The notes under the pieces were generated by a model. It saw only the letters and a program-made list of their open reading frames with translations, searched no databases and had not been told where the DNA came from. A program made the position numbers and the translations under genes. A stretch of DNA of 64,000 bases from Minisyncoccota bacterium (GTDB taxonomy: Bacteria; Patescibacteriota; Minisyncoccia; Phycocordibacterales; JBAZVT01): positions 15,210 through 79,209 of the forward strand of contig JBAZVT010000002.1 of the NCBI GenBank assembly GCA_041660745.1. The letters are read 5' to 3'. Within the stretch, counting starts at the first letter, position 1; each line of letters begins with the position of its first letter. This document shows, piece by piece, positions 12,318 to 64,000 of the stretch.

Positions 12318-12379
12318 GAATCTATTTTTTGTGAGGGGTGTGGACAGTCACGATAAGAAAAAGTGATATAATAAAAAGC

Positions 12380-13105
12380 ATGGCTGATGATAAAAAACCA
12401 AAGGGGGGTGATAAGGGAAAGAAGCCAGCTGAAGCTGTTGCGCCAACTGGTTTTGGAGGTACTTCATTAACTCTTGAGGAGGCGATTTTGTTCGCTATTG
12501 TTATTGTTGTAATTTTTGTTGCAGTTGGTGGAACAATGTTTTTCAAAAGCTTTTCGATTTCTCCGCATTTTTTCTCAAACCTTTTTTATGGATTTTTGAA
12601 TTATTCTGTCGCATTCGGGCTAAGTGTCTTAGATTGGTTTAGCATTGTTTCTTTTGGACTTACATTTTCACTCTCAGTATTGATAGCTATTGTTTTCTTT
12701 AAAACTGATAAAATCGGACATGCTGAACATGAAAAATATTATCCTACCGACTCGAATAATTCTTTGATTGAAATGACTTCCAAGACCGTTAAAAATCAAA
12801 AATGGGAAAATATACTTTTGCATGTTTCTTCTGACAAACAGAATGACTGGAAGATTGCAATTCTTGAAGCTGATATTATGCTTGGTGATATGTTGGAGCG
12901 TATGGGGTACCGCGGAGAGGGTATTGGTGACATGTTGAAGTCTATTGAAAAAAGTGATTTCACTACTTTGGATAGCGCGTGGGAGGCCCACAAGATTCGA
13001 AATATGATTGCTCACGAAGGACAGGATTTCATTCTCACAGAACGAGAGGCACGCAGAGTTATTGAATTATATAAGGCCGTCTTTAATGAGTTTAAGTTAA
13101 TTTAG
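12380..13105 (+). CDS. membrane-anchored protein with C-terminal HEPN-like (Rx4H) domain
   Basis: Basic N-term, 2-3 TM helices, C-terminal …AHKIRNMIAHEGQDF… matches HEPN R-x4-6-H signature (DUF4145-like). Confidence 0.45.
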   Translation: MADDKKPKGGDKGKKPAEAVAPTGFGGTSLTLEEAILFAIVIVVIFVAVGGTMFFKSFSISPHFFSNLFYGFLNYSVAFGLSVLDWFSIVSFGLTFSLSVLIAIVFFKTDKIGHAEHEKYYPTDSNNSLIEMTSKTVKNQKWENILLHVSSDKQNDWKIAILEADIMLGDMLERMGYRGEGIGDMLKSIEKSDFTTLDSAWEAHKIRNMIAHEGQDFILTEREARRVIELYKAVFNEFKLI

Positions 13106-13149
13106 AATTCCTGGATAATTTTAAGTGAAAGTAGTATGAGGCCGACCCC

Positions 13150-13178
13150 TTGCGGTTTTTTGTATTATTTTGTATAAT
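13150..13178 (+). promoter_or_regulatory. sigma70-type promoter with extended -10 (TTGCGG-17-TGtTATAAT) upstream of initiator-like tRNA
   Basis: tgtataat at 13171-13178, TTG-containing -35 17 bp upstream. Confidence 0.45.
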
Positions 13179-13193
13179 AGTTCGACTGTTAAT

Positions 13194-13264
13194 CGCGGAG
13201 TAGAGAAGTAGTATCTCGGGAGGCTCATAACCTCCAGGCCTTGGTGCAATTCCAAGCTCCGCAA
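13194..13264 (+). tRNA. initiator-like tRNA-fMet (CAT) with degenerate D/T loops
   Basis: CGCGGAG…CTCCGCA-A acceptor with C1xA72 mismatch, A11:U24, anticodon loop CTCATAA, GC-rich anticodon stem, A73; strong similarity to E. coli tRNAfMet ends; D-loop AGTAGTA lacks GG and T-loop TGCAATT has G55. Confidence 0.5.
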
Positions 13265-13315
13265 CACATAACAAAAGAATCCCGAACTGGGGTTCTTTTG
13301 TTATGTGTTGCGGAG
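13257..13315. terminator. long perfect hairpin (23-bp stem, 13-nt loop) overlapping tRNA 3' end
   Basis: ctccgcaacacataacaaaagaa[tcccgaactgggg]ttcttttgttatgtgttgcggag. Confidence 0.5.
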
Positions 13316-13453
13316 AGAATACAAATAGTTTTGTATTCGTCAGGAATTGCAGGCCGGAGATATGTCGTGAGTCTTCGAGACGACATCGAGGCGGGGTTGA
13401 GAGTACTTTGGCTTTTGAAGGCTTTTGCGACAAAAGACTTAGTAACTCGTGAC

Positions 13454-13473
13454 CAATTCCAAGCTCCGCAACA
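13454..13473 (+). repeat. direct copy of initiator-like tRNA 3' terminal 20 nt (tRNA-linked repeat)
   Basis: caattccaagctccgcaaca identical to 13247-13266. Confidence 0.7.
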
Positions 13474-13475
13474 AT

Positions 13476-13512
13476 AAAGAAAAACACCTTCGTTCCGAAG
13501 GTGTTTTTCTTT
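13476..13512. terminator. bidirectional Rho-independent terminator between convergent tRNA units
   Basis: aaagaaaaacaccttcg-ttcc-gaaggtgtttttcttt. Confidence 0.75.
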
Positions 13513-13541
13513 ATGCGCGGCTGAGCGGGTTAAGACTTGAA
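13513..13541 (-). repeat. degenerate copy of tRNA-Asp 3' end (T-arm 3' half + acceptor 3' strand)
   Basis: minus strand reads ttcaagtc(ttaac)ccgctcagccgcgcat vs tRNA ggttcaagtccgctcagccgcgca. Confidence 0.6.
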
Positions 13542-13623
13542 TCTTACAGATTCAGTACAGGTTTCCCAAAATTAAAAATAAGAATTTTTGATTTTATGGG
13601 AGAACCTCTTCAAGTCCGCTACG

Positions 13624-13643
13624 GAAGCAAAGCAGTTTGCTTC
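13624..13643 (-). repeat. conserved hairpin motif gcaaactgctttgc (tRNA-spacer module)
   Basis: minus strand gaagcaaactgctttgcttc; same core recurs at 14108 and 14359 with compensatory outer-stem changes. Confidence 0.6.
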
Positions 13644-13684
13644 CTCAGCCGCAAAAAAACAGCCCTAAAGCTGTTTTTTCAATG

Positions 13685-13758
13685 CGCGGCTGAGCGGACT
13701 TGAACCGCCGACCCCTCGCGTGACAGGCGAGTGCTCTAACCAGCTGAGCTACAACCGC
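13685..13758 (-). tRNA. tRNA-Asp (GTC)
   Basis: rc: GCGGTTGTAGCTCAGCTGGTTAGAGCACTCGCCTGTCACGCGAGGGGTCGGCGGTTCAAGTCCGCTCAGCCGCG, anticodon loop CTGTCAC, discriminator G; followed by hairpin terminator. Confidence 0.85.
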
Positions 13759-13819
13759 ATAGGTTAACCATAAGAGGATATCAGATTAAACGTTTTTATT
13801 CAACCCTGAAGATCTCTTG

Positions 13820-13893
13820 TGTCGGCGGATGGGATCGAACCATCTACCTTGGGCTTATGAGTCCCACGCTCTAACCAATTGAGCTACGCCGAC
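13820..13893 (-). tRNA. tRNA-Met (CAT), elongator-type (G1-C72 paired)
   Basis: rc: GTCGGCGTAGCTCAATTGGTTAGAGCGTGGGACTCATAAGCCCAAGGTAGATGGTTCGATCCCATCCGCCGACA. Confidence 0.8.
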
Positions 13894-14007
13894 ATTCTCT
13901 TATATTATCCACAAAAAACGACTTTTCGCAATATGGGGTTTGAAAATTTGATTGAAAAAACTGAGTATCTATAGTATGCTCTTCGTATACATTTTTTAAT
14001 TGTATAA

Positions 14008-14080
14008 GCCGTTGTAGCTCAGTCGGTAGAGCACGTCATTGGTAATGACGAGGTCACCAGTTCAATCCTGGTCAACGGCT
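14008..14080 (+). tRNA. tRNA-Thr (GGT)
   Basis: GCCGTTGTAGCTCAGTCGGTAGAGCACGTCATTGGTAATGACGAGGTCACCAGTTCAATCCTGGTCAACGGCT. Confidence 0.85.
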
Positions 14081-14107
14081 CAAGCGCAAAGCGATTGGGC
14101 TGTTGAA

Positions 14108-14129
14108 GCACGCAAACTGCTTTGCGTGC
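14108..14129 (+). repeat. conserved hairpin motif gcaaactgctttgc + inverted T-loop fragment (14132-14143 ccaggattgaac)
   Basis: gcacgcaaactgctttgcgtgc; followed by reverse complement of tRNA T-loop/stem. Confidence 0.6.
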
Positions 14130-14225
14130 GCCCAGGATTGAACGGCGGAACTATATTTTTCAGTAGAAAAATAAGTGAGCTGGTGCCTAGGCAAAACTTT
14201 TTGACGAAAAAGTTTTAGTCGCGGG

Positions 14226-14244
14226 CAATCCCGCTCAACGGCTC
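14226..14244 (+). repeat. degenerate copy of tRNA-Thr(GGT) 3' end
   Basis: caatcccgctcaacggctc vs tRNA caatcctggtcaacggctc (17/19), forms own mini T-arm hairpin gcggg-caat-cccgc. Confidence 0.6.
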
Positions 14245-14261
14245 TATTTTAAAAAACGCAA

Positions 14262-14334
14262 GCCACCTTAGCTCAGTTGGTAGAGCACTACTTTCGTAAA
14301 GTAGGGGTCCGCAGTTCGATCCTGCGAGGTGGCT
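14262..14334 (+). tRNA. tRNA-Thr (CGT)
   Basis: GCCACCTTAGCTCAGTTGGTAGAGCACTACTTTCGTAAAGTAGGGGTCCGCAGTTCGATCCTGCGAGGTGGCT. Confidence 0.85.
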
Positions 14335-14358
14335 CTGAATCCGTGAAGAGACAACACA

Positions 14359-14380
14359 GTAAGCAAACTGCTTTGCTTAC
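14359..14380 (+). repeat. conserved hairpin motif gcaaactgctttgc + inverted T-loop fragment (14383-14393 gcaggatcgaa)
   Basis: gtaagcaaactgctttgcttac then rc of ttcgatcctgc. Confidence 0.6.
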
Positions 14381-14444
14381 GGCAGGATCGAAAGGGTTTT
14401 CCTTATCGAGTCTTTGAGATGGAAAACCACCTGGCTACGTGGTA

Positions 14445-14478
14445 GTCGATCCTGCGAGGTGGCTCCGAATCTGTGAAG
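14445..14478 (+). repeat. direct copy of tRNA-Thr(CGT) 3' end plus 15 nt of 3' flank
   Basis: gtcgatcctgcgaggtggctccgaatctgtgaag vs gttcgatcctgcgaggtggctctgaatccgtgaag. Confidence 0.7.
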
Positions 14479-14528
14479 GGGAATAGATTAAGCTTTATTT
14501 TTGAAGCTATTTTTCCTCTTGACTTTTT

Positions 14529-14556
14529 ATAACCTATAACCTAGGATATAGGTTAT
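14529..14556. promoter_or_regulatory. candidate CsoR operator: perfect 10-bp inverted repeat ATAACCTATA-N8-TATAGGTTAT
   Basis: Palindrome ~30 bp upstream of csoR start, overlapping likely promoter. Confidence 0.45.
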
Positions 14557-14586
14557 ATTACTTTTAACAAATTCACGAAAAACACT

Positions 14587-14859
14587 ATGCAAGAGCATAT
14601 ACTTACAACCAACAAACAAAAAGCTCAGAAATTGAGTAGGCAGGCGGCAGGCATTATGAAGAAGGTTTTGGATATGGTAGATCAGGACTCCTATTGCCCA
14701 GAAGTTATTCAACAGGTGGATGCCGTCGTCGGTTTGCTTACAAGTGCGAAGAAAGAATTGCTTAAAGGGCACCTCGGACATTGCTTGGAGCACAGAATGC
14801 ATGAGAATAAAAAACAGACTGTAGACGAGCTTTTGAAGATTTATAATCTTTCACGCTAA
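14587..14859 (+). CDS. csoR: CsoR/RcnR-family metal-sensing transcriptional repressor
   Basis: YCPEVIQQVDAV…HLGHCL (C-H-C metal ligands), 90 aa, immediately upstream of copA. Confidence 0.8.
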   Translation: MQEHILTTNKQKAQKLSRQAAGIMKKVLDMVDQDSYCPEVIQQVDAVVGLLTSAKKELLKGHLGHCLEHRMHENKKQTVDELLKIYNLSR

Positions 14860-25951: not shown

Positions 25952-26481
25952 TGTAATAATTTTGCAAATTTTTTCTGTATTTTTTCAAGTTTTGGATTTA
26001 TCACAATCTGACAATATGCTGATTCGGGATGTTTAAGAAAATATTCTTTATGTTCTGCTTCTGCTTCGTAAAACATTGTTAACGGTTTGATTTCGGTAAT
26101 TATCTTGTCCAAATTTGGGGTTTCTTTTTGAAGTTTGTGTGTGTATTTTTCAGCCTCCTTCCTTTGCTGGTCCAACGTATAATAAATAACAGAACGATAC
26201 TGAGTTCCCACGTCATTGCCTTGACGGTTAAGAGTTGTCGGATCGTGTGATGCAAAAAATACTGTCAGTAGATTACGAAAAGATATTTTCTGTGGATCGT
26301 ATTCTACCCGAACAACTTCTGCATGACCTGTATTTCCAGTGCAGACGTTTTCATAAACTGGAAAGGCTGTGGTGCCTCCGGCATATCCAGGTGTGATAGA
26401 TATAACACCTGGAACAATTTTGAAAACTGCTTCAATGCACCAGAAGCAACCTCCTCCTAAAATAACTGTTTCTGTTTTCAT
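25948..26481 (-). CDS. msrA: peptide-methionine (S)-S-oxide reductase
   Basis: GGGCFWCIEAVF active-site motif; ATGA overlap with msrB. Confidence 0.85.
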   Translation of the reverse strand: MKTETVILGGGCFWCIEAVFKIVPGVISITPGYAGGTTAFPVYENVCTGNTGHAEVVRVEYDPQKISFRNLLTVFFASHDPTTLNRQGNDVGTQYRSVIYYTLDQQRKEAEKYTHKLQKETPNLDKIITEIKPLTMFYEAEAEHKEYFLKHPESAYCQIVINPKLEKIQKKFAKLLQ

Positions 26482-26635
26482 GAACATAATATTGTGCTTT
26501 GCATATGAAACTTTGATGTGAGGGTTGAACAGGAAAAGCATTTTGACATTAAGAAATGCTAAATGTCATCTATCTGTGTTACACTGACTTTGGATTCAAA
26601 CACAACAAAAATAACCCCCTGAAAGGAGGGATACC

Positions 26636-27745
26636 GTGAGTACATTGCCAAGATTGAAGATTAAGAATTTCGAGATTGAGATACCTGTTTTTCAAGGTGG
26701 AATGGGTGTTGGAGTTTCTCTTGATCCACTTGCGGGGGCGGTTTCCTGGCGGGGTGGATTGGGAATAATTTCAAGTGCCGGTTTGCGGCATATTGTTTCC
26801 GCTCGTTGTGGAAAGGAATACGACACCTATAATGCTACGCGCGCCATGATACATTGGACCCAAATACTTGCAGGAGGCAAGCCCGTTGGTATCAATGTGA
26901 TGTGTGCTGTTGTTCGGGATTACGAGGACACCATCCGCGCTGCGATTGATGCTGGCGTAGATGCCATTATCTCTGGTGCGGGTGTGCCAATGAGCCTTCC
27001 TGAAATACAGAATCCTGGGAAGACTGCTCTTATCCCGATTGTTTCCTCGGCACGGTGTCTTGAACTTATCTGTCGCCGTTGGGCGAGGGTGGGATATCGT
27101 CCAGACGCAGTGGTACTGGAGGGTCCTCTTGCGGGAGGGCACTTGGGATTCAAATACGGTGAAATCGGGAAACTGGAACATCAGCTTGAACAGTTACTTC
27201 CTCAAGTTTTGGAGGCAGCTTCTCGGTACGGTGGGTTTCCTGTCATTGTGGCGGGTGGAATCTATACACATGAAGACATTGTCTCGTTCCTTTCACAAGG
27301 AGCGGCGGGTGTTCAAATGGGGACAAGATTCCTTGCGACTGAGGAGAGTTCTGCAACAATGGCATTCAAACAAGCTGTCGTTGCATCAACCAAGGCGGAC
27401 ATCAAGGTTCTTGCCCATCCACAAAATAGTCCGGCTTCTCCATGTGGTATGCCGTTTCGAGTTCTTACTACTTCGCCGGGGTTGCAAAAACTTCGTGCAG
27501 CTAAGTGCGATCTTGGTTTCTTGCTTAGACGTGATGCAGGTGGTCATCTCACTGCATGCCAGGCAAAGCCTGGGAATCCGCAGTCTGGTGAGTACTTGTG
27601 CATCTGCAATGCCCTTATGTCTGCGGCTGGGTATGTCCCGACCCAATTACCTGTGTATACAGTCGGCAGCAATGCTTGGCGTGTGAACAAGATTCTTTCG
27701 GTTAAGGATCTCATGGCAAGGTTGTGTGGAGATGTTCCTGAGTGA
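26636..27745 (+). CDS. nitronate monooxygenase / FabK-like FMN oxidoreductase (NMO family)
   Basis: IPVFQGGMGVGVS…VAGGIYTHEDI; GTG start with strong AAAGGAGGG SD; GC-rich relative to genome. Confidence 0.7.
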   Translation: MSTLPRLKIKNFEIEIPVFQGGMGVGVSLDPLAGAVSWRGGLGIISSAGLRHIVSARCGKEYDTYNATRAMIHWTQILAGGKPVGINVMCAVVRDYEDTIRAAIDAGVDAIISGAGVPMSLPEIQNPGKTALIPIVSSARCLELICRRWARVGYRPDAVVLEGPLAGGHLGFKYGEIGKLEHQLEQLLPQVLEAASRYGGFPVIVAGGIYTHEDIVSFLSQGAAGVQMGTRFLATEESSATMAFKQAVVASTKADIKVLAHPQNSPASPCGMPFRVLTTSPGLQKLRAAKCDLGFLLRRDAGGHLTACQAKPGNPQSGEYLCICNALMSAAGYVPTQLPVYTVGSNAWRVNKILSVKDLMARLCGDVPE

Positions 27746-27758
27746 TAGTGAAGCGAAA

Positions 27759-27796
27759 GCGACGGGTCTGCAGTAGCAGACCCGTCGCTATTTTTG
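27759..27796. terminator. Rho-independent terminator
   Basis: gcgacgggtctg-cagtag-cagacccgtcgc + TTTTT. Confidence 0.8.
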
Positions 27797-27800
27797 TATC

Positions 27801-27897
27801 TTGTCATCCTCGCGACAGCAGTAGTCGATACCACTCCCGGGTATCAGGTGCTCTAGCCACCCGCGAGCGGTGGACGACCCATTCGCGGGAATGACAG
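27801..27897. repeat. IR-flanked GC-rich element, copy A (MITE/REP-like)
   Basis: Termini ttgtcatcctcgcga … tcgcgggaatgacaga (imperfect TIR) shared with copy B at 40053-40220. Confidence 0.5.
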
Positions 27898-27932
27898 ACC
27901 TTTAGGGGCTACAAGGCTAAACCTCTGTATTT

Positions 27933-28679
27933 CTATAACTCAATCTTTGAGAATTGATACATGCCGACAAGTACCATGACGATGAGTACTCCGACAAGAA
28001 CACTAAAATTTGTTAATGATGAAAAATGTTGTACTCCTGATAGCGCACCCCGTAGTCCATCCACGCCATATGTGAGTGGGTTGGCGCGTGTAATGGCTGT
28101 TAGGAAGCCCGGAATGCCTGTGATAGGAAATAATGCCCCTGAGAGGTAGAAGAGGGGTTGAATCACAAAGTTGATGATGAGCGGGAATCCTTGCATGTCA
28201 TCCAGTCTCGCTGCGATTGCTACACCTACGGAAGAAAATATGAGTGCCATGAGAACCAAGAAAACAAATGCAAGTGGTAGGGTGTATATATTGTACACCC
28301 GGTATCCGACGAGGAAGGTGATAAAAAATACCAGTACTCCCTGGATAATTGCTACAGTTGCTCCCGCGAATATTTTGCCGATTAATATTTCAAAACGGGA
28401 GACGGGGGCAACAAAAGTTTCTTTTAAAAAACCAAATTGTTTGTCCCAAATAATTTCCACGCCAGTGAATATTGAAGTAAATAAAACTGTCATGGCAATG
28501 ATGCCTGGTGAAAGGAATTGTATGTAGTTGCCCTGTCCCGCACGTGCAAAAATGGGACTCAGTCCTAATCCAAACGCCACTAGGAAAATAAGGGGTTGAC
28601 CCAACGCGCCCACCAGACTCGCTTTTTTGCGGATAAATCTTTTGAGTTGTCTAAGCCATAAAATATAGATAGTTCTCAT
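27933..28679 (-). CDS. ABC-2 type transporter permease
   Basis: 6 TM, ABC-2 family N-term (WLRQLKRFIRKKASL). Confidence 0.75.
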   Translation of the reverse strand: MRTIYILWLRQLKRFIRKKASLVGALGQPLIFLVAFGLGLSPIFARAGQGNYIQFLSPGIIAMTVLFTSIFTGVEIIWDKQFGFLKETFVAPVSRFEILIGKIFAGATVAIIQGVLVFFITFLVGYRVYNIYTLPLAFVFLVLMALIFSSVGVAIAARLDDMQGFPLIINFVIQPLFYLSGALFPITGIPGFLTAITRANPLTYGVDGLRGALSGVQHFSSLTNFSVLVGVLIVMVLVGMYQFSKIEL

Positions 28680-35095: not shown

Positions 35096-35169
35096 GTTGG
35101 TTATTATTTTATAATAAAAACGTTTCAAGTATAGCTCTCTGGCCTAACCCGACAACATGCTAACTCGTG

Positions 35170-35240
35170 CTGCGGGGCTTGGACTCGAACCAAGATACCA
35201 TGCTCCAGAGGCATGTGTCCTACCATTAGACGATCCCGCA
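35170..35240 (-). tRNA. tRNA-Gln (CTG)
   Basis: rc: TGCGGGATCGTCTAATGGTAGGACACATGCCTCTGGAGCATGGTATCTTGGTTCGAGTCCAAGCCCCGCAG; U1-A72, short D-arm typical of Gln. Confidence 0.75.
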
Positions 35241-35328
35241 ATTGATGTTTCTACACAATACTAGAAAAACCCGCTTTTTTCAAGTGTGTGAGGTCGGTTG
35301 GGGAGAGTGATCGTCGATTTGTGAAGAA

Positions 35329-38300
35329 ATGGCGAAAGGCGTACAATATCTAAATACTATGCAAGAATACCTCAAAAATATTGCAGTTAAATTTTCTGAC
35401 CCACAAACAAGTGAAATGGGTTATCGAACTGATCTTGAGAATCTTTTGGTAAAGATTTTTCCAAAAGATAAAAAATATCAGATACATCATGATGCGAAAG
35501 CTGTTGGAGGAAATAAGCCCGATTTTGTTATTTTGAAAGATGGTGTGCCTCTGTTATATATAGAAGCGAAAGATATTGGTGTCAGTTTAGATAAAGTAGA
35601 AAAGAGTGATCAAATGGATCGTTATTTTGGTTATAATAATCTTGTGCTGACAGATTACGTTGAATTTCGTTTTTATCGAAACGGTGAAAGATATGGTGAG
35701 CCTGTTGCTATCTCTACATTTGATAAGACATATCGGACAATAGTAGAACTTAGTCATAATTTTTCTTTACTTTCAAAAACCATTGTGGATTTTGCTGCTT
35801 CCCACAAGGAGCCCATAAAACGTGGAAAACACTTAGCACAGATTATGGGAGGTAAAGCTCAGCGTATTCGGGATAATGTGAAGGAAATGCTCGTTGTGAC
35901 TTCAGATGCGTATGCCGACCTTCTTAAAATGCGTGATGTGGTCAAGGAACATCTCGTCTCAAGTCTTGACGATGAGTCGTTTGCCGATATGTATGCGCAG
36001 ACTCTGGTGTATGGACTTTTTGCCGCTCGGTACAATGATAAGACCGCAGATAATTTTTCACGTGCTGAGGCTCGAGAGCTTGTGCCTAAAACAAACCCAT
36101 TTCTTCGATCATTTTTTGATCATATAGCCGGAGAATCTTTTCCGGACAGACTTGGATTTATTGTTGATGAGTTATGTGAAGTTTTTACCCATGCAGATGT
36201 GCATAGATTAATGCATGAATATTTTACACAGGGAAAAATCTCTGGCGGGGTACATACGAGTCCTGATCCAGTCATCCATTTCTATGAAGATTTTCTGCGT
36301 GAGTATGATACAAAAAAGAAGATGGAAATGGGTGTTTTCTATACACCGCGCCCAGTCGTGCAGTTTATTGTGCGGGCAGTAGATAGTATTCTTAAAAGTG
36401 AATTTGGACTTGAAAAAGGTTTAACCGACACAACAAAAATTTCTGTTGAGAAAAAAGAAACGAACGAAAAAGGTAAAGAGGTAAAAGTTCAAAAAGAATA
36501 TCACAAAGTTCAAGTACTTGATGTAGCGACTGGTACGGGCACTTTTTTGAATGAAGTAATTACTCATATTTATAGTAGCTTTAAAGGTCAAGAAGGTGGG
36601 TGGCCTGCGTATGTTGAAAATGACCTTCTGCCACGACTACACGGCTTTGAGTTGATGATGGCTTCATATACTATTGCTCATTTGAAATTGGGTATGACAC
36701 TTCATGATACTGGCGCTGGGGGAATTAATAAAAGATTGGGTGTTTATTTAACAAATACACTTGAAGAGGCAAAAAATTCCATATGGGGTAATAATAGCTT
36801 ATTTGTGGGTGTGCAAGAAAGTATCACCAAAGAGGCAATTGAGGCTTCGCGCGTTAAGTCAGATTATCCGATAATGTGTGTAATTGGAAACCCGCCATAT
36901 TCCGGCATTTCTATGAACAGGCATTATACAGATAATAATGTGTATAAAGTGGAACCGGGAGGCTTGCAGAAGCTTCAAGAGAAGAAAAATTGGCTTGATG
37001 ATGATTATGTAAAATTTATTAGATTTGCAGAAAGTTTGGTTGAGAAGAATGGTGAGGGGGTCGTGGGAATGATTACTGCACATGGATATATTGATAATCC
37101 TACGTTTCGTGGGATGCGTTGGCATTTAAGGAAAACCTTTGACAAGATTTATGTTATTGATTTGCATGGAAATAGTAACAAAAAAGAAACTGCTCCCGAT
37201 GGCGGAAAAGATGAAAATGTTTTTGATATTAAAACGGGAGTTTCAATGATCTTGGCAATAAAAAATTCTCCCGATGTAAAAAGTAAGAAACTCGGGCAAG
37301 TTTATCAAACTGATTTTTATGGATTGCGAGAAAGTAAATATGAACGCTTGGATGTAGAAAGTATTGAGTCAATTAAATGGAACGAATTACCTGAAAATAC
37401 GGAAGTCTGGCGTGTTGAAGGTAAAGGAAAAAGTGAATACCAGAAAGGCTTTTCTGTTGCAGAATTGTTTCCTAAAAATACCACAGGGATAGTCACTATG
37501 GGGGATAGTTTTATCGTTGACAAAGACAAAGAAATTCTTACAAAGAGAGTTCGGGAATTTTTGTATAACAACGTTTTAGAAAATGAATTAAAGTTTAAAT
37601 ATAATCTTGGTAAAAACTATGCAAAGTGGGTTATTGATAATAAGAAAAAAATTCAAGATGATCCAAGTAAAATAGCTTCACTTTTGTATCGTCCTTTTGA
37701 TAGTAGATATACTTATTTTGATAAAAATTTAGTATGGAGAACACGCGATCAGGTTATGATTCAACTAGTTAATAGGGAAAATATTGCTTTCATTGCCTCT
37801 CGGATAAACAGGCAGGCTAGTCTTGGATACTTCTTTGTAACGAAGACTCTTACAGATTTTCATGTTTTAGACAATGCTCAAGATTCAACTTCAGTTTTTC
37901 CTCTTTATCTTTACGACGAACGAGGAGAAAAGATTCCAAACATTAATAAGGCAATTTGGCAAAAAATAAATGAACTAGTGGGAGAGACTATTCCTGAAAA
38001 TATTTTGGACTATGTTTACGCGTACTTACATTCACCGAATTATCGCGATAAGTATAAAGAGTTTCTAAAGATAGATTTTCCTCGTGTTCCATTCCCTAAA
38101 AATAAGGAAGAGTTCTGGAATCTTGTCCCGCTCGGTACAAAACTTCGTGAGCTGCATTTAATGACTTCGTCAGAGTGCAATAAGCTTATAACCACATATC
38201 CTGTAACTGGGGGCGATGTCGTAGAAAAAATAAAATACGAGAAAGAGAAAGTATATATTAATAATACGCAGTATTTTGGGAATGTCCCTAAAGTCGCTTG

Positions 38301-38463
38301 GGATTTCTATATTGGGGGTTATCAACCTGCTCAGAAATGGCTTAAAGATCGTAAGGATAAAAAACTTTCAAATGAAGATATCGAACACTATCAAAAAATG
38401 ATTGTGGTATTGGTGGAAACCGATAGAATCATGAAAGAAATCGATAAAACTTTTGAAAATTAA
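35329..38463 (+). CDS. Type IIG/IIL restriction-modification enzyme (fused PD-ExK endonuclease + gamma-class N6-adenine MTase; MmeI/Eco57I-like)
   Basis: N-terminal PD…EAK (GGNKPDFVILKDGVPLLYIEAKD), MTase motif IV NPPY (VIGNPPYSG), motif I-like DVATGTGTFL; 1044 aa. Confidence 0.8.
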   Translation: MAKGVQYLNTMQEYLKNIAVKFSDPQTSEMGYRTDLENLLVKIFPKDKKYQIHHDAKAVGGNKPDFVILKDGVPLLYIEAKDIGVSLDKVEKSDQMDRYFGYNNLVLTDYVEFRFYRNGERYGEPVAISTFDKTYRTIVELSHNFSLLSKTIVDFAASHKEPIKRGKHLAQIMGGKAQRIRDNVKEMLVVTSDAYADLLKMRDVVKEHLVSSLDDESFADMYAQTLVYGLFAARYNDKTADNFSRAEARELVPKTNPFLRSFFDHIAGESFPDRLGFIVDELCEVFTHADVHRLMHEYFTQGKISGGVHTSPDPVIHFYEDFLREYDTKKKMEMGVFYTPRPVVQFIVRAVDSILKSEFGLEKGLTDTTKISVEKKETNEKGKEVKVQKEYHKVQVLDVATGTGTFLNEVITHIYSSFKGQEGGWPAYVENDLLPRLHGFELMMASYTIAHLKLGMTLHDTGAGGINKRLGVYLTNTLEEAKNSIWGNNSLFVGVQESITKEAIEASRVKSDYPIMCVIGNPPYSGISMNRHYTDNNVYKVEPGGLQKLQEKKNWLDDDYVKFIRFAESLVEKNGEGVVGMITAHGYIDNPTFRGMRWHLRKTFDKIYVIDLHGNSNKKETAPDGGKDENVFDIKTGVSMILAIKNSPDVKSKKLGQVYQTDFYGLRESKYERLDVESIESIKWNELPENTEVWRVEGKGKSEYQKGFSVAELFPKNTTGIVTMGDSFIVDKDKEILTKRVREFLYNNVLENELKFKYNLGKNYAKWVIDNKKKIQDDPSKIASLLYRPFDSRYTYFDKNLVWRTRDQVMIQLVNRENIAFIASRINRQASLGYFFVTKTLTDFHVLDNAQDSTSVFPLYLYDERGEKIPNINKAIWQKINELVGETIPENILDYVYAYLHSPNYRDKYKEFLKIDFPRVPFPKNKEEFWNLVPLGTKLRELHLMTSSECNKLITTYPVTGGDVVEKIKYEKEKVYINNTQYFGNVPKVAWDFYIGGYQPAQKWLKDRKDKKLSNEDIEHYQKMIVVLVETDRIMKEIDKTFEN

Positions 38464-38479
38464 TTATTAGTTATCCACA

Positions 38480-38507
38480 GATGTTTTGCCGATATCGGCA
38501 AAACATC
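38480..38507. promoter_or_regulatory. perfect 28-bp palindrome gatgttttgccgat|atcggcaaaacatc between RM gene and dinD
   Basis: No flanking T-run on either strand, so operator-like rather than terminator. Confidence 0.4.
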
Positions 38508-38523
38508 AAAAAATAATAAAAAT

Positions 38524-39378
38524 ATGAAACTAGAGGTGATTCAACAATACTTGGGAAAGTTTGATCAATATGTGCATAAGGCTGGTGACGCTGAGTTCTG
38601 TTTTGCCAGAGATTTGCAGGGTTTGTTGGGATATACAAAATGGGATAACTTTTTAAATGTTATAGAAAAAGCAAAGATTGCCTGTAAGAATTCCGGTGGT
38701 AGTATTGATGAAAATTTTGCGTTTACCACGAGGCTTGTAGAGATGCCTAATGGTGGAACAAAGGATGCAGAGGATTATTTTCTTTCTAGATACGCATGTT
38801 ATCTTGTTGCACAAAATGGTGACTCGTCAAAAGAGCCGGTTGCTTTTGCAATGAGCTACTTTGCTGTTCAAACGCGAAAACAAGAAATTCTTGAAAAGAA
38901 GATTGAGGAAATTGAAAGGTTGCAGGCAAGAAATAAATTAAGTTTGTCAGAAAAGGAGTTATCTGGCGTTGTATATGAAAGAGGGGTTGATGGTCAAGGT
39001 TTTGCTGTGATTAGAAGTAAGGGAGACCAGGCACTTTTTGGTGGAAAAACTACCGCTGAAATGAAGAATAAGTATAAGGTCTCAAATTCTAGAGCGCTGG
39101 CAGATTTTTTACCTACCATTACAATAAAGGCGAAAGATTTTGCTAATGAAATTACCATTTTTAATGTTAAAAAGAATTCTGGTTTAAGAGGGGTAAATAG
39201 CATTACGAATGAACATGTCAAAAATAATAAAGATGTCCGAGACTTGTTGAAGAAAAGAGATATAATTCCCGAAAATCTCCCTCCTGAAGAAGATATTCAG
39301 AAATTAAGAAGAAGAATTGATTCTCAGGGTAAAAATATTTTAAAAGAAGTGGGTGGTAAAAGAAATGATCGGGGATAA
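38524..39378 (+). CDS. dinD: DNA-damage-inducible protein D (DinD family)
   Basis: LSRYACYLVAQNGDS…FAVQTRKQE closely parallels E. coli DinD LSRYACYLVVQNGDP…FAIQTRRQE. Confidence 0.85.
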   Translation: MKLEVIQQYLGKFDQYVHKAGDAEFCFARDLQGLLGYTKWDNFLNVIEKAKIACKNSGGSIDENFAFTTRLVEMPNGGTKDAEDYFLSRYACYLVAQNGDSSKEPVAFAMSYFAVQTRKQEILEKKIEEIERLQARNKLSLSEKELSGVVYERGVDGQGFAVIRSKGDQALFGGKTTAEMKNKYKVSNSRALADFLPTITIKAKDFANEITIFNVKKNSGLRGVNSITNEHVKNNKDVRDLLKKRDIIPENLPPEEDIQKLRRRIDSQGKNILKEVGGKRNDRG

Positions 39379-63130: not shown

Positions 63131-63263
63131 TTGAAGTATATGCTAGCACAGGATACTGAGTCGGGCAAGTAGGTGTTGTGTGTGGGTGTTGATAGTAAAA
63201 AACAGGAAATGAAAATCAAATGCGCTTTTTGAGTGCTGTTTTGTATGGTATAGTCTTTCTATT

Positions 63264-63336
63264 GTCCCCGTAGTTAAATGGATTATAACAGTCCCGTCCT
63301 AAGGGATAGTTGTCAGTTCGATTCTGGCCGGGGACA
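63264..63336 (+). tRNA. tRNA-Arg (CCT)
   Basis: GTCCCCGTAGTTAAATGGATTATAACAGTCCCGTCCTAAGGGATAGTTGTCAGTTCGATTCTGGCCGGGGACA. Confidence 0.75.
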
Positions 63337-63522
63337 CATGAGCGCAGTGAATGTGCTCCGAGAAAAGCTCCGGGGGAGCTTTGTGCCAGAATCGAAGCCT
63401 GCTTGAGATTTTCTTGAGTGACTACAGTGGGTGGTGCCGTTCTCAGGCACCATTTACTATAGTTACCCGCGAGCGGTATCTGCACGAAAAAGAAAATCCA
63501 AGTAGGGTACTGAAACTGTAAG

Positions 63523-63544
63523 TTTCGATTCTGGCCGGGGACAC
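63523..63544 (+). repeat. direct copy of tRNA-Arg 3' terminal 22 nt (tRNA-linked repeat)
   Basis: gtttcgattctggccggggacac vs tRNA gttcgattctggccggggacac; spacer also has inverted T-loop fragment ccagaatcgaa at 63385-63395. Confidence 0.7.
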
Positions 63545-63564
63545 CCGTGATATAATAATTACCT

Positions 63565-64000
63565 ATGAATCCAAAAATTCTCATCGCACAACCAGAAGCA
63601 GAGTATGAACTTCTTGATTCTGGAGAAAATGAAAAACTTGAACGATATGGTTCGGTAGTTTTGTCTCGCCCGGATCCACAGGCTTTGTGGAGGCGGTCTC
63701 TACCTCATGCAGAATGGATAAAGGCATCTGCAAAGTTTGAGCGTGGTTCACGAGATGGTTATGGTGCGTGGAAGCTTGGGGCAGAAACTCCTAAGCGTTG
63801 GAATATTTCATATGGAGGATTGAAATTTGTAGTAAAGCCGAGCGCTTTCAAACACACAGGTATTTTTCCAGAGCATGCTCCAAACTGGCAATGGATTCGT
63901 GAAAAAATATCTGAGGCCGGTAGAGAAGTGTCCGTGTTGAATTTATTTGGGTACACAGGAGGCGCATCACTCGCGGCTGCACAGGCGGGGGCAAAGGTGT
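63565..64000 (+). CDS. partial CDS (5' part): RlmI/RlmK-like SAM-dependent rRNA methyltransferase
   Basis: MNPKILIAQPEAEYELLDSGENEKLERYGSVVLSRPDPQALW…LNLFGYTGGASLAAAQAGAKV; runs off window end; TATAAT at 63551-63556. Confidence 0.55.
   Translation, partial: MNPKILIAQPEAEYELLDSGENEKLERYGSVVLSRPDPQALWRRSLPHAEWIKASAKFERGSRDGYGAWKLGAETPKRWNISYGGLKFVVKPSAFKHTGIFPEHAPNWQWIREKISEAGREVSVLNLFGYTGGASLAAAQAGAKV

Follow-up and report, generated by a model that had tools for sequence, protein, structure and literature searches.

The window, that is, the whole 64-kb stretch of DNA that was analysed, comes from a bacterium of the candidate phyla radiation (CPR). It contains seven tRNA genes, and five of them are followed by a short module. 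The order within a module is one or more hairpins, an inverted T-loop fragment (at +42 to +78 from the tRNA) and then, at +111 to +189, the tRNA 3' end repeated in direct orientation. None of the five modules contains an ORF of useful size. The tRNA-Met (13819-13893) and tRNA-Gln genes have no module. An earlier note on this DNA had placed five such units here and had listed these two genes as module-free; the coordinates and copies were recovered, and we agree on the two genes. The features are given below. CM R1 is a covariance model of the type-B, tRNA-trailing core built from 77 metagenome sequences only, and L091 is a relative at 85% identity.

13194-13265, + strand: initiator-like tRNA-Met (Met-i), host of unit 1 (ARAGORN; Rfam tRNA, 56.2 bits)
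13266-13306, + strand: unit 1, terminator-like hairpin abutting tRNA-Met-i (inverted repeat, fold)
13307-13315, + strand: unit 1, GTTGCGGAG at +42, reverse complement of the acceptor 3' strand (P1 5' strand)
13317-13338, + strand: unit 1, P2 hairpin GAATACAAATAGTTTTGTATTC (fold, comparison with L091)
13339-13466, + strand: unit 1, type-B core (CM R1, 49.9 bits, E 2e-14; compensatory changes against L091)
13343-13351, + strand: unit 1, inverted T-loop fragment GGAATTGCA within the core, at +78
13454-13473, + strand: unit 1, direct copy of the Met-i 3' end, CAATTCCAAGCTCCGCAACA, 19 nt, at +189 (direct repeat)
13474-13514: unit 1, bidirectional terminator after the direct copy (inverted repeat)
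13684-13758, - strand: tRNA-Asp, host of unit 2 (ARAGORN, Rfam)
13515-13683, - strand: unit 2 (type A), whole (repeats, fold)
13653-13680, - strand: unit 2, terminator-like hairpin
13644-13652, - strand: unit 2, reverse complement of the acceptor strand, GCGGCTGAG, at +32
13623-13644, - strand: unit 2, P2 hairpin
13609-13620, - strand: unit 2, inverted T fragment AGCGGACTTGAA at +64
13543-13558, - strand: unit 2, core hairpin, GTAC-N-stem-TGTAA-stem
13515-13541, - strand: unit 2, direct 3' copy at +156, with a 6-nt insertion
14008-14081, + strand: tRNA-Thr(GGT), host of unit 3 (ARAGORN, Rfam)
14097-14244, + strand: unit 3 (type-B-like variant), whole (repeats, fold)
14097-14106, + strand: unit 3, reverse complement of the acceptor strand, GGGCTGTTGA, two G.U
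14108-14129, + strand: unit 3, P2
14132-14143, + strand: unit 3, inverted T fragment CCAGGATTGAAC at +51
14226-14244, + strand: unit 3, direct copy, 89% identity over 19 nt
14262-14335, + strand: tRNA-Thr(CGT), host of unit 4 (ARAGORN, Rfam)
14359-14478, + strand: unit 4 (short, type-A-like), whole (repeats, fold)
14359-14380, + strand: unit 4, P2
14382-14392, + strand: unit 4, inverted T fragment GCAGGATCGAA at +47
14393-14445, + strand: unit 4, core
14446-14478, + strand: unit 4, direct copy, 33 nt, 94% identity, 13 nt of trailer included
63264-63337, + strand: tRNA-Arg(CCT), host of unit 5 (ARAGORN, Rfam)
63364-63544, + strand: unit 5 (type A), whole (repeats, fold)
63364-63382, + strand: unit 5, hairpin
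63385-63396, + strand: unit 5, inverted T fragment GCCAGAATCGAA at +48
63507-63522, + strand: unit 5, core hairpin GTACTGAAACTGTAAG
63524-63544, + strand: unit 5, direct copy, 21 nt, perfect

The reverse complement of the acceptor 3' strand opens three of the window units (1, 2 and 3). In unit 1 the hairpin at 13266-13306 and the segment that follows it form a palindrome with 27-nt arms, the acceptor 3' strand included. After GGAATTGCA the core of this unit consists of GCCGGA, hairpin 1, CGAGGCGGGG, P4/hairpin 2 and GTGACC, and its right junction is CGTGACC|AATTCCAAGCTCCGCAAC, where the tRNA copy begins in the T-loop, with GGAATTGCA upstream. The P2 loop of the L091 ortholog is CAAACTGCTTTG. 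The core of unit 3 comprises two A/T-rich hairpins, and pairing of the Thr-GGT copy is maintained by two G.U wobbles. The interval of about 100 nt between inverted fragment and direct copy is occupied by a conserved multi-helix core, of which there are at least two types. A conserved hairpin core with compensatory changes in the outer stems had been noted in three units, which is borne out, as the 64 kb contains exactly three occurrences of gcaaactgctttgc, each inside a module, with the outer stems cacg/cgtg, taag/ctta and gaag/cttc. The hairpin of unit 2 covaries with that of the orthologous module in L091 and of a type-A module in L001.

The occurrence of the modules is beyond chance. In a set of 77 tRNAs from the window and related Paceibacterota loci, 11 strict modules were found, against 0.6 expected when each flank was tested with the 3' end of another tRNA, and none were found in upstream flanks. 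A pattern for one core type (type B), blind to tRNAs, gave at least 120 matches in metagenomes, of which 81 were examined; Hainich samples were the source of many matches. In 60 of these a tRNA on the same strand ends 31-117 nt upstream of the core, with 33 anticodons and 16 amino acids represented, and two further cores lie behind tmRNA genes. One core was found after a protein-gene terminator, and others upstream of a tRNA, beside a 5' partial copy. The cassettes are gene-less, 110-250 bp long and situated directly 3' of the tRNA on its strand. The direct repeat covers the final 18 or 20 nt of the tRNA, and in 31 of 40 modules it ends no more than 2 nt away from the tRNA end. In the pattern-matched cores the right junction is constant within the T-loop, between nt 55 and 56: tgtgacc is followed by the tRNA copy from nt 56. 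The left end of the type-B core is preceded by the T-loop complement, both in the pattern-matched family and in the Met-i unit of the window. The rule for the junction is precise, with the copied segment running from T-loop nt 55|56 as far as the 3' end of the tRNA; the published work on tRNA introns in Patescibacteria concerns position 35/36.

Duplicated tRNA 3' ends could also be decayed scars of kilobase-sized islands or prophages that inserted at tRNA genes and were later deleted, with attL/attR and arm fragments left behind, and IMG/VR provirus ends do often bear such modules. On the provirus contigs, however, the modules are placed beyond the prophage attR in the host flank, outside the prophage. 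More than 100 independent copies share one core of 90-130 nt, with covariation and an identical junction; there are no gene remnants, and the inverted fragments are left unaccounted for. This origin is very improbable and close to refuted. The statement of the earlier note that these are not ordinary integrase att scars agrees with the more than 100 gene-less copies, the conserved core and the single constant junction.

Each insert is a structured, RNA-like module in which, according to the folds, the antisense segments and the distal 3'-end copy are predicted to close a three-way junction. In the 77 metagenome sequences 89.9% of the cells in the alignment are paired, compared with 71% when shuffled and 36-41% when slid, and cells with a double change number 474 versus 162. 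In the pattern-anchored set about 74-80% of the P3 cells are paired, with changes on both sides at all seven pairs. A conserved structure with compensatory changes had been proposed for the window, and both this covariation and the comparison with L091 are in line with it. Of 27 modules, 20 fold more stably in the sense than in the antisense orientation; among the CPR modules 10 of 11 do so. The type-B alignment contains two invariant or nearly invariant G.U pairs, 77-134 (77/77 sequences) and 79-132 (65/77). An asymmetry of G.U over A.C in the variable helices was looked for and rejected, the two being equally frequent, and the argument for RNA rather than DNA therefore rests on the invariant P4 G.U and the fold energies.

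The antisense fragments form 350 Watson-Crick pairs with the proximal tRNA and 346 with the distal copy, out of 470. The pairing of the inverted fragment with the T-arm of the tRNA in a precursor, as suggested earlier, is thus not favoured, since the distal copy is complemented equally well. At positions where tRNA and distal copy differ, the antisense fragment agrees with the proximal sequence in 10 cases, with the distal in 6 and with neither in 8. A few loci (the window Thr-GGT unit versus L091) had suggested that the antisense tracks the proximal tRNA and that the distal copy is a decaying ancestral end, but this is not general. An apparent rule that the fragments are always perfect complements (403 WC : 2 GU) was an artefact of exact 7-mer seeding.

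The closest known likeness is to RtT (RF00391), known from the 178-bp repeats in the tyrT-tyrV operon of E. coli. Like all five window units, these come immediately after a tRNA gene and share its strand. An antisense fragment, GGGGAAGGAT, is found about 55-60 nt after the tRNA; next come a core of about 90 nt, which contains two hairpins, and a direct copy of the last 19 nt of the tRNA. The units are likewise in tandem. As annotated, RtT RNA begins just behind tyrV and ends with the CCA of the copy. In the Rfam consensus the closing helix pairs GgGaaGG, which is antisense to the T-stem/acceptor of tRNA-Tyr, with CCuuCcC of the duplicated 3' end, and the same helix, with its tRNA-like 3' tail, is present in the window folds. 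The analogy to the tyrT repeats made in the earlier note thus holds down to the closing by antisense-copy pairing. The two differ in the junction (nt 58|59 in E. coli RtT, 54-56 in the CPR modules) and in core sequence. The CPR modules have in addition the antisense acceptor strand and the P2 hairpin, and are found at dozens of tRNA species and at tmRNA, whereas RtT is confined to one operon. The RtT covariance model (gathering threshold 45 bits) had no match at E<=10 in window positions 13100-14600 and 63200-63600, and gave 133-137 bits on the E. coli control. CM R1 in turn had no match to the four other window units, to E. coli RtT or to the Firmicute-like modules. Common descent of all RtT-like modules does not follow from these results, and the common architecture, which is also found in bacteria unrelated to CPR, could be convergent or a by-product of a shared insertion mechanism. 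No mechanism for RtT is given in the RtT literature, and to our knowledge the tyrT repeats and RtT RNA have been without explanation for more than four decades, viewed as an enterobacterial curiosity. Since CPR bacteria show the same type of architecture, with different, strongly covarying cores, after tmRNA and dozens of tRNA species, and unrelated bacteria show it too, this curiosity becomes a general phenomenon open to comparative study.

The inserts belong to no existing Rfam family. Among 4227 models, run on the window and six other loci, only tRNA reached the gathering threshold, the remaining hits being below threshold and mostly hairpin-like; in E-value mode no ribozyme, riboswitch or other family scored near gathering. 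The modules are therefore a candidate new family of structured RNA. Resemblances of the junctions to hammerhead, twister and K-turn, seen by eye, had no model support and are not claimed. tmRNA and bacterial Y-RNA-like tRNA mimics recall the modules in that their 5' and 3' segments pair in an acceptor-like manner, they keep the T-stem 3' strand, and some of the tRNA body has given way to a large insertion. In the modules, however, it is the T-loop that gives way to the insertion, a T-loop elbow is absent, and in many cases pairing of the acceptor extends through the discriminator. Neither ARAGORN nor Rfam called a module as tmRNA or tRNA.

We take the units to be RtT-like, tRNA-trailing RNA modules that are co-transcribed with the tRNA and spread as cassettes by gain and loss, with a probability of about 0.6. 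A cassette consists of up to five parts: in many cases a terminator-like hairpin, then the antisense of the acceptor 3' strand, the P2 hairpin, the antisense T-stem/T-loop and the conserved three-way-junction core. After it the tRNA sequence from T-loop to 3' end appears a second time, in sense orientation. In the transcript the antisense segments would pair with the distal copy to give a rod or a three-way junction. Such a closure would keep the antisense pieces off the real tRNA and supply the module with a tRNA-type 3' terminus. By analogy with E. coli RtT, the module may be read through from the tRNA promoter and excised by the enzymes that process tRNA ends. Co-transcription is weakly suggested by the lack of any promoter-like site within a module in the orientation of the tRNA; for the A/T-rich hairpins, simple scans for promoters and terminators were uninformative. 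A run of at least five T is present at the terminator-like hairpin between tRNA and module in 26 of 62 units, and as this hairpin is strong in many units, read-through may be low. At the DNA level the cassettes behave as elements that are gained and lost. Their occurrence behind any tRNA, in tandem arrays and with a patchy distribution, suggests that they probably spread by recombination within the segment from T-loop to 3' end.

The patchiness is evident at several levels. The 11 strict modules in the 77-tRNA set are concentrated in a few genomes, many relatives with syntenic tRNA clusters are module-free (for example the compact cluster of L010), and within one genome a module can be present at some tRNAs and missing at others. 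Tandem arrays were found in L018, L026, L087, L099, L140, L156 and L164. At the orthologous loci of L091 the modules of Met-i and Asp are retained despite heavy divergence between genes, that of Thr-GGT is diverged and that of Thr-CGT is missing. The Asp gene of L091 has gained a second module in tandem, proximal to the old one, and each unit has kept its terminator. Relative to the window, L091 has its tRNA blocks inverted in place.

The retention at Asp and Met-i, the conserved and covarying structure, the invariable position directly downstream on the tRNA strand and the match of the antisense segments to the cognate tRNA would also suit a cis-acting host element of the tRNA operon. The antisense would then pair with the T-arm/acceptor and control folding, 3' processing or termination, with the distal copy as an anti-antisense switch. 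This is distinctly unlikely, given that most syntenic relatives have no module, that tRNAs of one genome differ in this respect, that the antisense is as good a match to the distal copy as to the tRNA, and that cores also occur behind a protein-gene terminator and upstream of tRNAs beside a 5' partial copy. A processing or termination role had been favoured in the earlier note; the absence of modules from many relatives, and of one from L091 at 85% identity, argues against an indispensable role. The tmRNA genes and the protein-gene terminator that bear the same core were likewise counted against it. Of that interpretation as a whole the RtT analogy, the conserved structure and the distinction from att scars stand, while the processing/termination role is not supported and the T-arm pairing is not favoured.

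Elements that integrate into tRNA and tmRNA genes with duplication of the att site have been described (Williams 2002, as given in PMC9897764). The modules resemble them in the duplicated tRNA 3' segment that flanks the insert and starts inside the T-loop, the use of tmRNA genes, the tandem arrays and a presence that varies between strains. They are unlike them in size (110-250 bp, not kilobases), in the inverted target copy inside the insert, in the use of at least 33 tRNAs by one family and in the lack of an integrase or any other gene. No tyrosine or serine recombinase was found in the inserts or, by Pfam, in the 20 window ORFs scanned, nor a transposase or reverse transcriptase in these ORFs, which have housekeeping, transporter and Bro-N domains only.

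It is unlikely that the modules are non-autonomous integrative mini-elements, inserted at the T-loop by a recombinase acting in trans. In that case the att site would be a hairpin in which the tRNA 3' segment is joined to its complement and the terminator hairpin forms the tip, the core would be a protein-binding or single-stranded-DNA structure, and the RNA would be incidental. Integration targeted to tRNA genes is classically recognised by a direct repeat of the tRNA 3' end (PMC9897764), and tmRNA targets, the constant T-loop junction, the differences between close relatives and the tRNA-proximal position of the newer unit in L091 Asp, with a terminator per unit, all fit. So do the in-place inversion of tRNA blocks and the long palindromes at Met-i of L053 and L008, which comprise tRNA 3' end, terminator and complement without any core. 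Against this stand the lack of a recombinase in the scanned window ORFs and in the modules and a junction that is constant on the element side while the tRNA-side arm varies over 33 anticodons, unlike the core sites of tyrosine recombinases. In addition, the invariant P4 G.U pairs would be A.C mismatches on the opposite strand, and a circular intermediate of about 150 bp is improbable.

The recombination sites CTXphi attP(+) and integron attC, which fold into hairpins, also have two inverted target-like copies with a short hairpin spacer beside one junction of the inserted DNA, but for the modules no Xer/IntI dependence and no single-stranded replicon are known, and the G|TT crossover position is not found. 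A MITE was rejected as well: in place of a short target-site duplication of fixed length there is a direct repeat of 18-33 nt whose end coincides with that of the tRNA, and the inverted flanks vary with the tRNA, so that they are derived from the target and are not element-specific terminal inverted repeats. An RNA-templated origin from mature tRNA was rejected because CCA is not enriched after the distal copy where the gene lacks CCA (1/23, p = 0.3).

Besides the RtT-like modules proposed above, we tentatively consider a broader, less likely reading, in which these are a new class of protein-less mobile RNA-gene cassettes for which one structural position, the T-loop, serves as insertion site in practically every tRNA or tmRNA gene. 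The target 3' end would be carried or regenerated in both orientations, and the transcript would close on itself and end like a tRNA. E. coli RtT would then be the single member that chanced to come to notice in 1978-1991. In a variant of this, the released RNA may be a tRNA-end mimic, for example in stress/stringent signalling or as a decoy.

The genomes of CPR bacteria are reduced (PMC13011429), and the cassettes may offer non-coding DNA a new way of spreading through streamlined genomes. They also bear on annotation, where their partial tRNA copies and inverted fragments can be taken in error for pseudo-tRNAs or island boundaries. No gene-carrying, 'autonomous' version of the module was seen among the IMG/VR matches without a nearby direct copy; these matches were mostly adjacent phage tRNAs whose own T-arm fits the pattern.

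Five of the seven tRNAs identified in the window with ARAGORN and Rfam (Met-i, Asp, Thr-GGT, Thr-CGT and Arg-CCT) share one downstream architecture, which bears out the earlier note for all five. On the strand of the tRNA, an inverted copy of the T-loop region is found at +42 to +78, and the tRNA 3' end recurs as a direct copy at +111 to +189. The hairpin core GCAAACTGCTTTGC, described in the same note as shared by three units, does occur three times in the 64 kb, only within module units and with differing outer stems; the type-specific core motifs are also restricted to module units within the window. Under a strict definition, an inverted fragment followed by a direct copy, modules were found at 11 of 77 tRNAs from the window and related loci. 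The expected number, with each flank matched to some other tRNA, is 0.6, and the upstream flanks of these tRNAs contain no module. The modules are therefore not due to chance.

The tRNA is followed by, often, an A/T-flanked terminator-like hairpin, then an antisense acceptor segment (5' strand of helix P1), hairpin P2, an antisense T-stem/T-loop segment (5' strand of P3), the core, and a sense copy from the T-loop to the 3' end. A complement of the acceptor 3' strand opens the Met-i, Asp and Thr-GGT units of the window, pairing in Thr-GGT being maintained via two G.U wobbles. The antisense segments pair with the distal copy in the minimum-free-energy folds of all units, giving a predicted closed multi-helix structure. 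Perfect antisense complementarity was a seeding artefact and was dropped; an origin from CCA-tailed mature tRNA, and the idea that the antisense fragment is inherited together with the proximal end of the tRNA, were tested and dropped too. The apical P2 motif CAA(A)CUGCUU(U)G is found, at different tRNAs, in the P2 hairpins of the window and in unrelated metagenome contigs (L105, L140, L164, L170 and L175), and is thus conserved, not the product of a recent duplication inside the window.

Core types and their members (L numbers are comparison loci from relatives, metagenomes and IMG/VR)
Type A: window Asp (minus strand) and window Arg (63264-63544); L001 Asp; L013 Thr-CGT; L041; L091 Asp-2
Type B: window Met-i (from 13194); L091 Met-i, Thr-GGT and Asp-1; L095 Met; L008 Asp

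The type A core is a long hairpin, (U)GUAC-N and a 5-6-bp hairpin that abuts the T-loop copy. The stem of the latter varies (GAATC/GATTC, GATCC/GGATC, GAAAC/GTTTC, GCTCC/GGAGC, GCTTG/CAAGC) and its loop is UGUAA, replaced in L091 by a C-G-extended stem. The type B core consists of GAAAGCCGGA, hairpin 1, GAGGCGGGG(UCGCG), hairpin 2 and UGUGACC. The window Thr-GGT and Thr-CGT cores are variants of these types. Long palindromes at L053:1119-1200 and L008:16750-16824, made up of a tRNA 3' end, a terminator hairpin and a perfect complement of that tRNA 3' end with no core or direct copy behind them, may represent the module in a solo or empty state.

In line with the compensatory changes that the note describes, RNAalifold and explicit pair counting on 77 distinct type-B sequences supported a conserved structure. 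The supported helices are hairpin 1, a long P4 (hairpin 2) whose 3' strand continues directly into P3, P3 itself (antisense T segment with direct copy) and P5, three pairs (GCC:GGC) adjoined by a G.A/A.G juxtaposition that by eye reads as a tandem G.A pair. Paired cells made up 89.9%, against 71% on shuffling and 36-41% with slid partners; cells changed on both sides numbered 474 against 162, and the covariation score was 0.499 against 0.155, reached by none of 500 shuffles. Each pair right outside the pattern-fixed bases occurs in three Watson-Crick types (for example AU 38, GC 31, CG 5). A sense-strand RNA is favoured because two P4 G.U pairs, A.C mismatches on the opposite strand, are invariant or nearly so (77/77 and 65/77) and because fold energy is lower for the sense strand in 20 of 27 modules (Wilcoxon p = 0.001). 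Since G.U and A.C are equally frequent in the variable helices, this is a good argument that falls short of proof.

A covariance model of the type-B core, R1, built from metagenome sequences only, gives the window Met-i module 49.9 bits (E 2e-14) and also detects three modules of L091 as well as those of L095 and L008. The remaining four modules of the window are not matched, nor are E. coli RtT and the Firmicute-like ones; there are therefore several core families with one common architecture.

The proposed analogy with the E. coli tyrT repeats holds for architecture and fails for family. In MG1655 each tRNA-Tyr of tyrT-tyrV is followed after ~58 nt by GGGGAAGGAT, the complement of ATCCTTCCCC, then by a ~90-nt core and AATCCTTCCCCCACCACCA. 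The rttR RNA is annotated from 7 nt past tyrV through the CCA of the copy, and the closing helix of the Rfam consensus pairs exactly these two, the antisense segment and the duplicated 3' end. RtT has covariation support and a tandem G.A motif from CaCoFold; the RtT literature examined gives no mechanism. RF00391 gave no match to window 13100-14600 or 63200-63600, even with the limit set at E<=10, and the modules are matched by no other family in Rfam. The inserts are structured modules, most likely at the RNA level, of an RtT-like kind without Rfam coverage. The module would be co-transcribed with its tRNA and its RNA released by tRNA-end processing; we infer these steps, as we do the mode of module spread. 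No recombinase was found among 20 window ORFs scanned in Pfam, and no gene-bearing version of the module was found.

IMG/VR was scanned twice with 'T-loop ... antisense T-loop' patterns, which yielded 17 different modules that possess a direct copy. They belong to unrelated bacteria whose tRNA genes encode the CCA (fMet, Pro, Tyr, Ser and others). Where contigs were inspected, the modules sit in the host flank past a prophage junction; some form tandem arrays. Most of the pattern matches that lacked a direct copy were not modules but neighbouring phage tRNAs. A probe containing no tRNA sequence, AAGCCGGA-N15-45-GAGGCGGGG-N25-55-TGTGACC, matched at least 120 stretches of the metagenome collection. 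Of 81 matches that were read, 60 lie 31-117 nt behind the end of a same-strand tRNA (33 anticodons, 16 amino acids), roughly ten others are truncated where the contig stops, and two lie behind tmRNA genes with the layout unchanged. In every tRNA-linked match read, TGTGACC is followed by the upstream tRNA from T-loop nt 56 on. The direct repeat comprises the final 18 or 20 nt of the tRNA, and in 31 of 40 modules it ends no more than 2 nt from the tRNA end; where identity extends further, the units are in tandem. One core is found behind the terminator hairpin of a protein gene and retains the S-loop-S'-core-S logic. Modules of this kind occur widely at tRNA and tmRNA genes, joined at a precise point in the T-loop, and behave as gain/loss cassettes. 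Behind the tmRNA genes at L115:3400-3940 and L157:450-940 come, in order, a terminator hairpin, 12-21 nt antisense to the tmRNA 3' end, a core of type B and a direct copy that is degenerate; the module does not differ from that found at tRNAs.

The window genome belongs to Paceibacterota (Patescibacteria/CPR). The best relatives of its 255-aa ORF (12338-13105) are in Paceibacterota and Zambryskibacteria MAGs, where the order ligase, GatC, GatA, 255-aa ORF and the Met-i/Met/Asp/Thr-GGT/Thr-CGT tRNA cluster is conserved. Modules are present at 5/7 tRNAs in the window, at 3/5 in L091, a relative with 85% identity in the flanking protein, and at several in L013 and L095; many syntenic relatives have none, including L010 with its tightly packed tRNA cluster. 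The Met-i module of L091 is orthologous to that of the window, with compensatory changes in hairpin 1 and P4. The L091 tRNA-Asp carries two tandem modules, a proximal type B and then the window-orthologous type A, each with its own terminator-like hairpin and with the shared 'native' terminator behind the last copy. Its Thr-GGT module has a diverged type-B core, and its Thr-CGT has no module. Between window 13194-14478 and L091:5150-6540 three tRNA blocks are each inverted in place, the flanking genes keeping their orientation:
Met-i and its module
Asp and Met
Thr-GGT and Thr-CGT
Across these loci the pattern is one of cassette gain and loss at tRNA 3' ends and not that of a fixed housekeeping signal.

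Some tRNAs are preceded, ~75-130 nt upstream, by partial direct copies of their own 5' end (14-22 nt, or the 5' half up to the anticodon loop), which look like a 5'-side counterpart of the 3' modules:
L001:16040-16150
L007:14680-14781
L014:3640-3717
L015:10500-10580
L091:5413-5560
L124:1100-1460, a type-B core between the upstream 5' partial copy and a full downstream tRNA-Leu
The L124 core belongs to a sub-variant with left flank GCAAGGCCGG, found in several contigs. In the Paceibacterota loci L003, L004, L007, L014 and L015 several tRNA genes begin right after a TATAT motif (for example GGTATAT|agcgggg), which suggests very short or absent 5' leaders.

The module-free tRNA-Gln (35169-35240, minus strand) adjoins a low-GC stretch (0.355-0.36; region 35169-39378) with a 1044-aa ORF (35329-38463) and a Bro-N domain protein (38524-39378), which may be foreign or phage-derived DNA. 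GC rises to 0.46 at 26001-28000, against ~0.40 elsewhere, in genes for methionine sulfoxide reductase and a nitronate monooxygenase-like protein. A 15+15-nt palindrome, TATAACCTATAACCT/AGGATATAGGTTATA, at 14528-14557 lies just 5' of a 90-aa ORF (14587-14859); the syntenic ORF of L096 encodes a CsoR-type metal repressor (PF02583), a copper P-type ATPase comes after it, and the palindrome is probably the operator of such a repressor.
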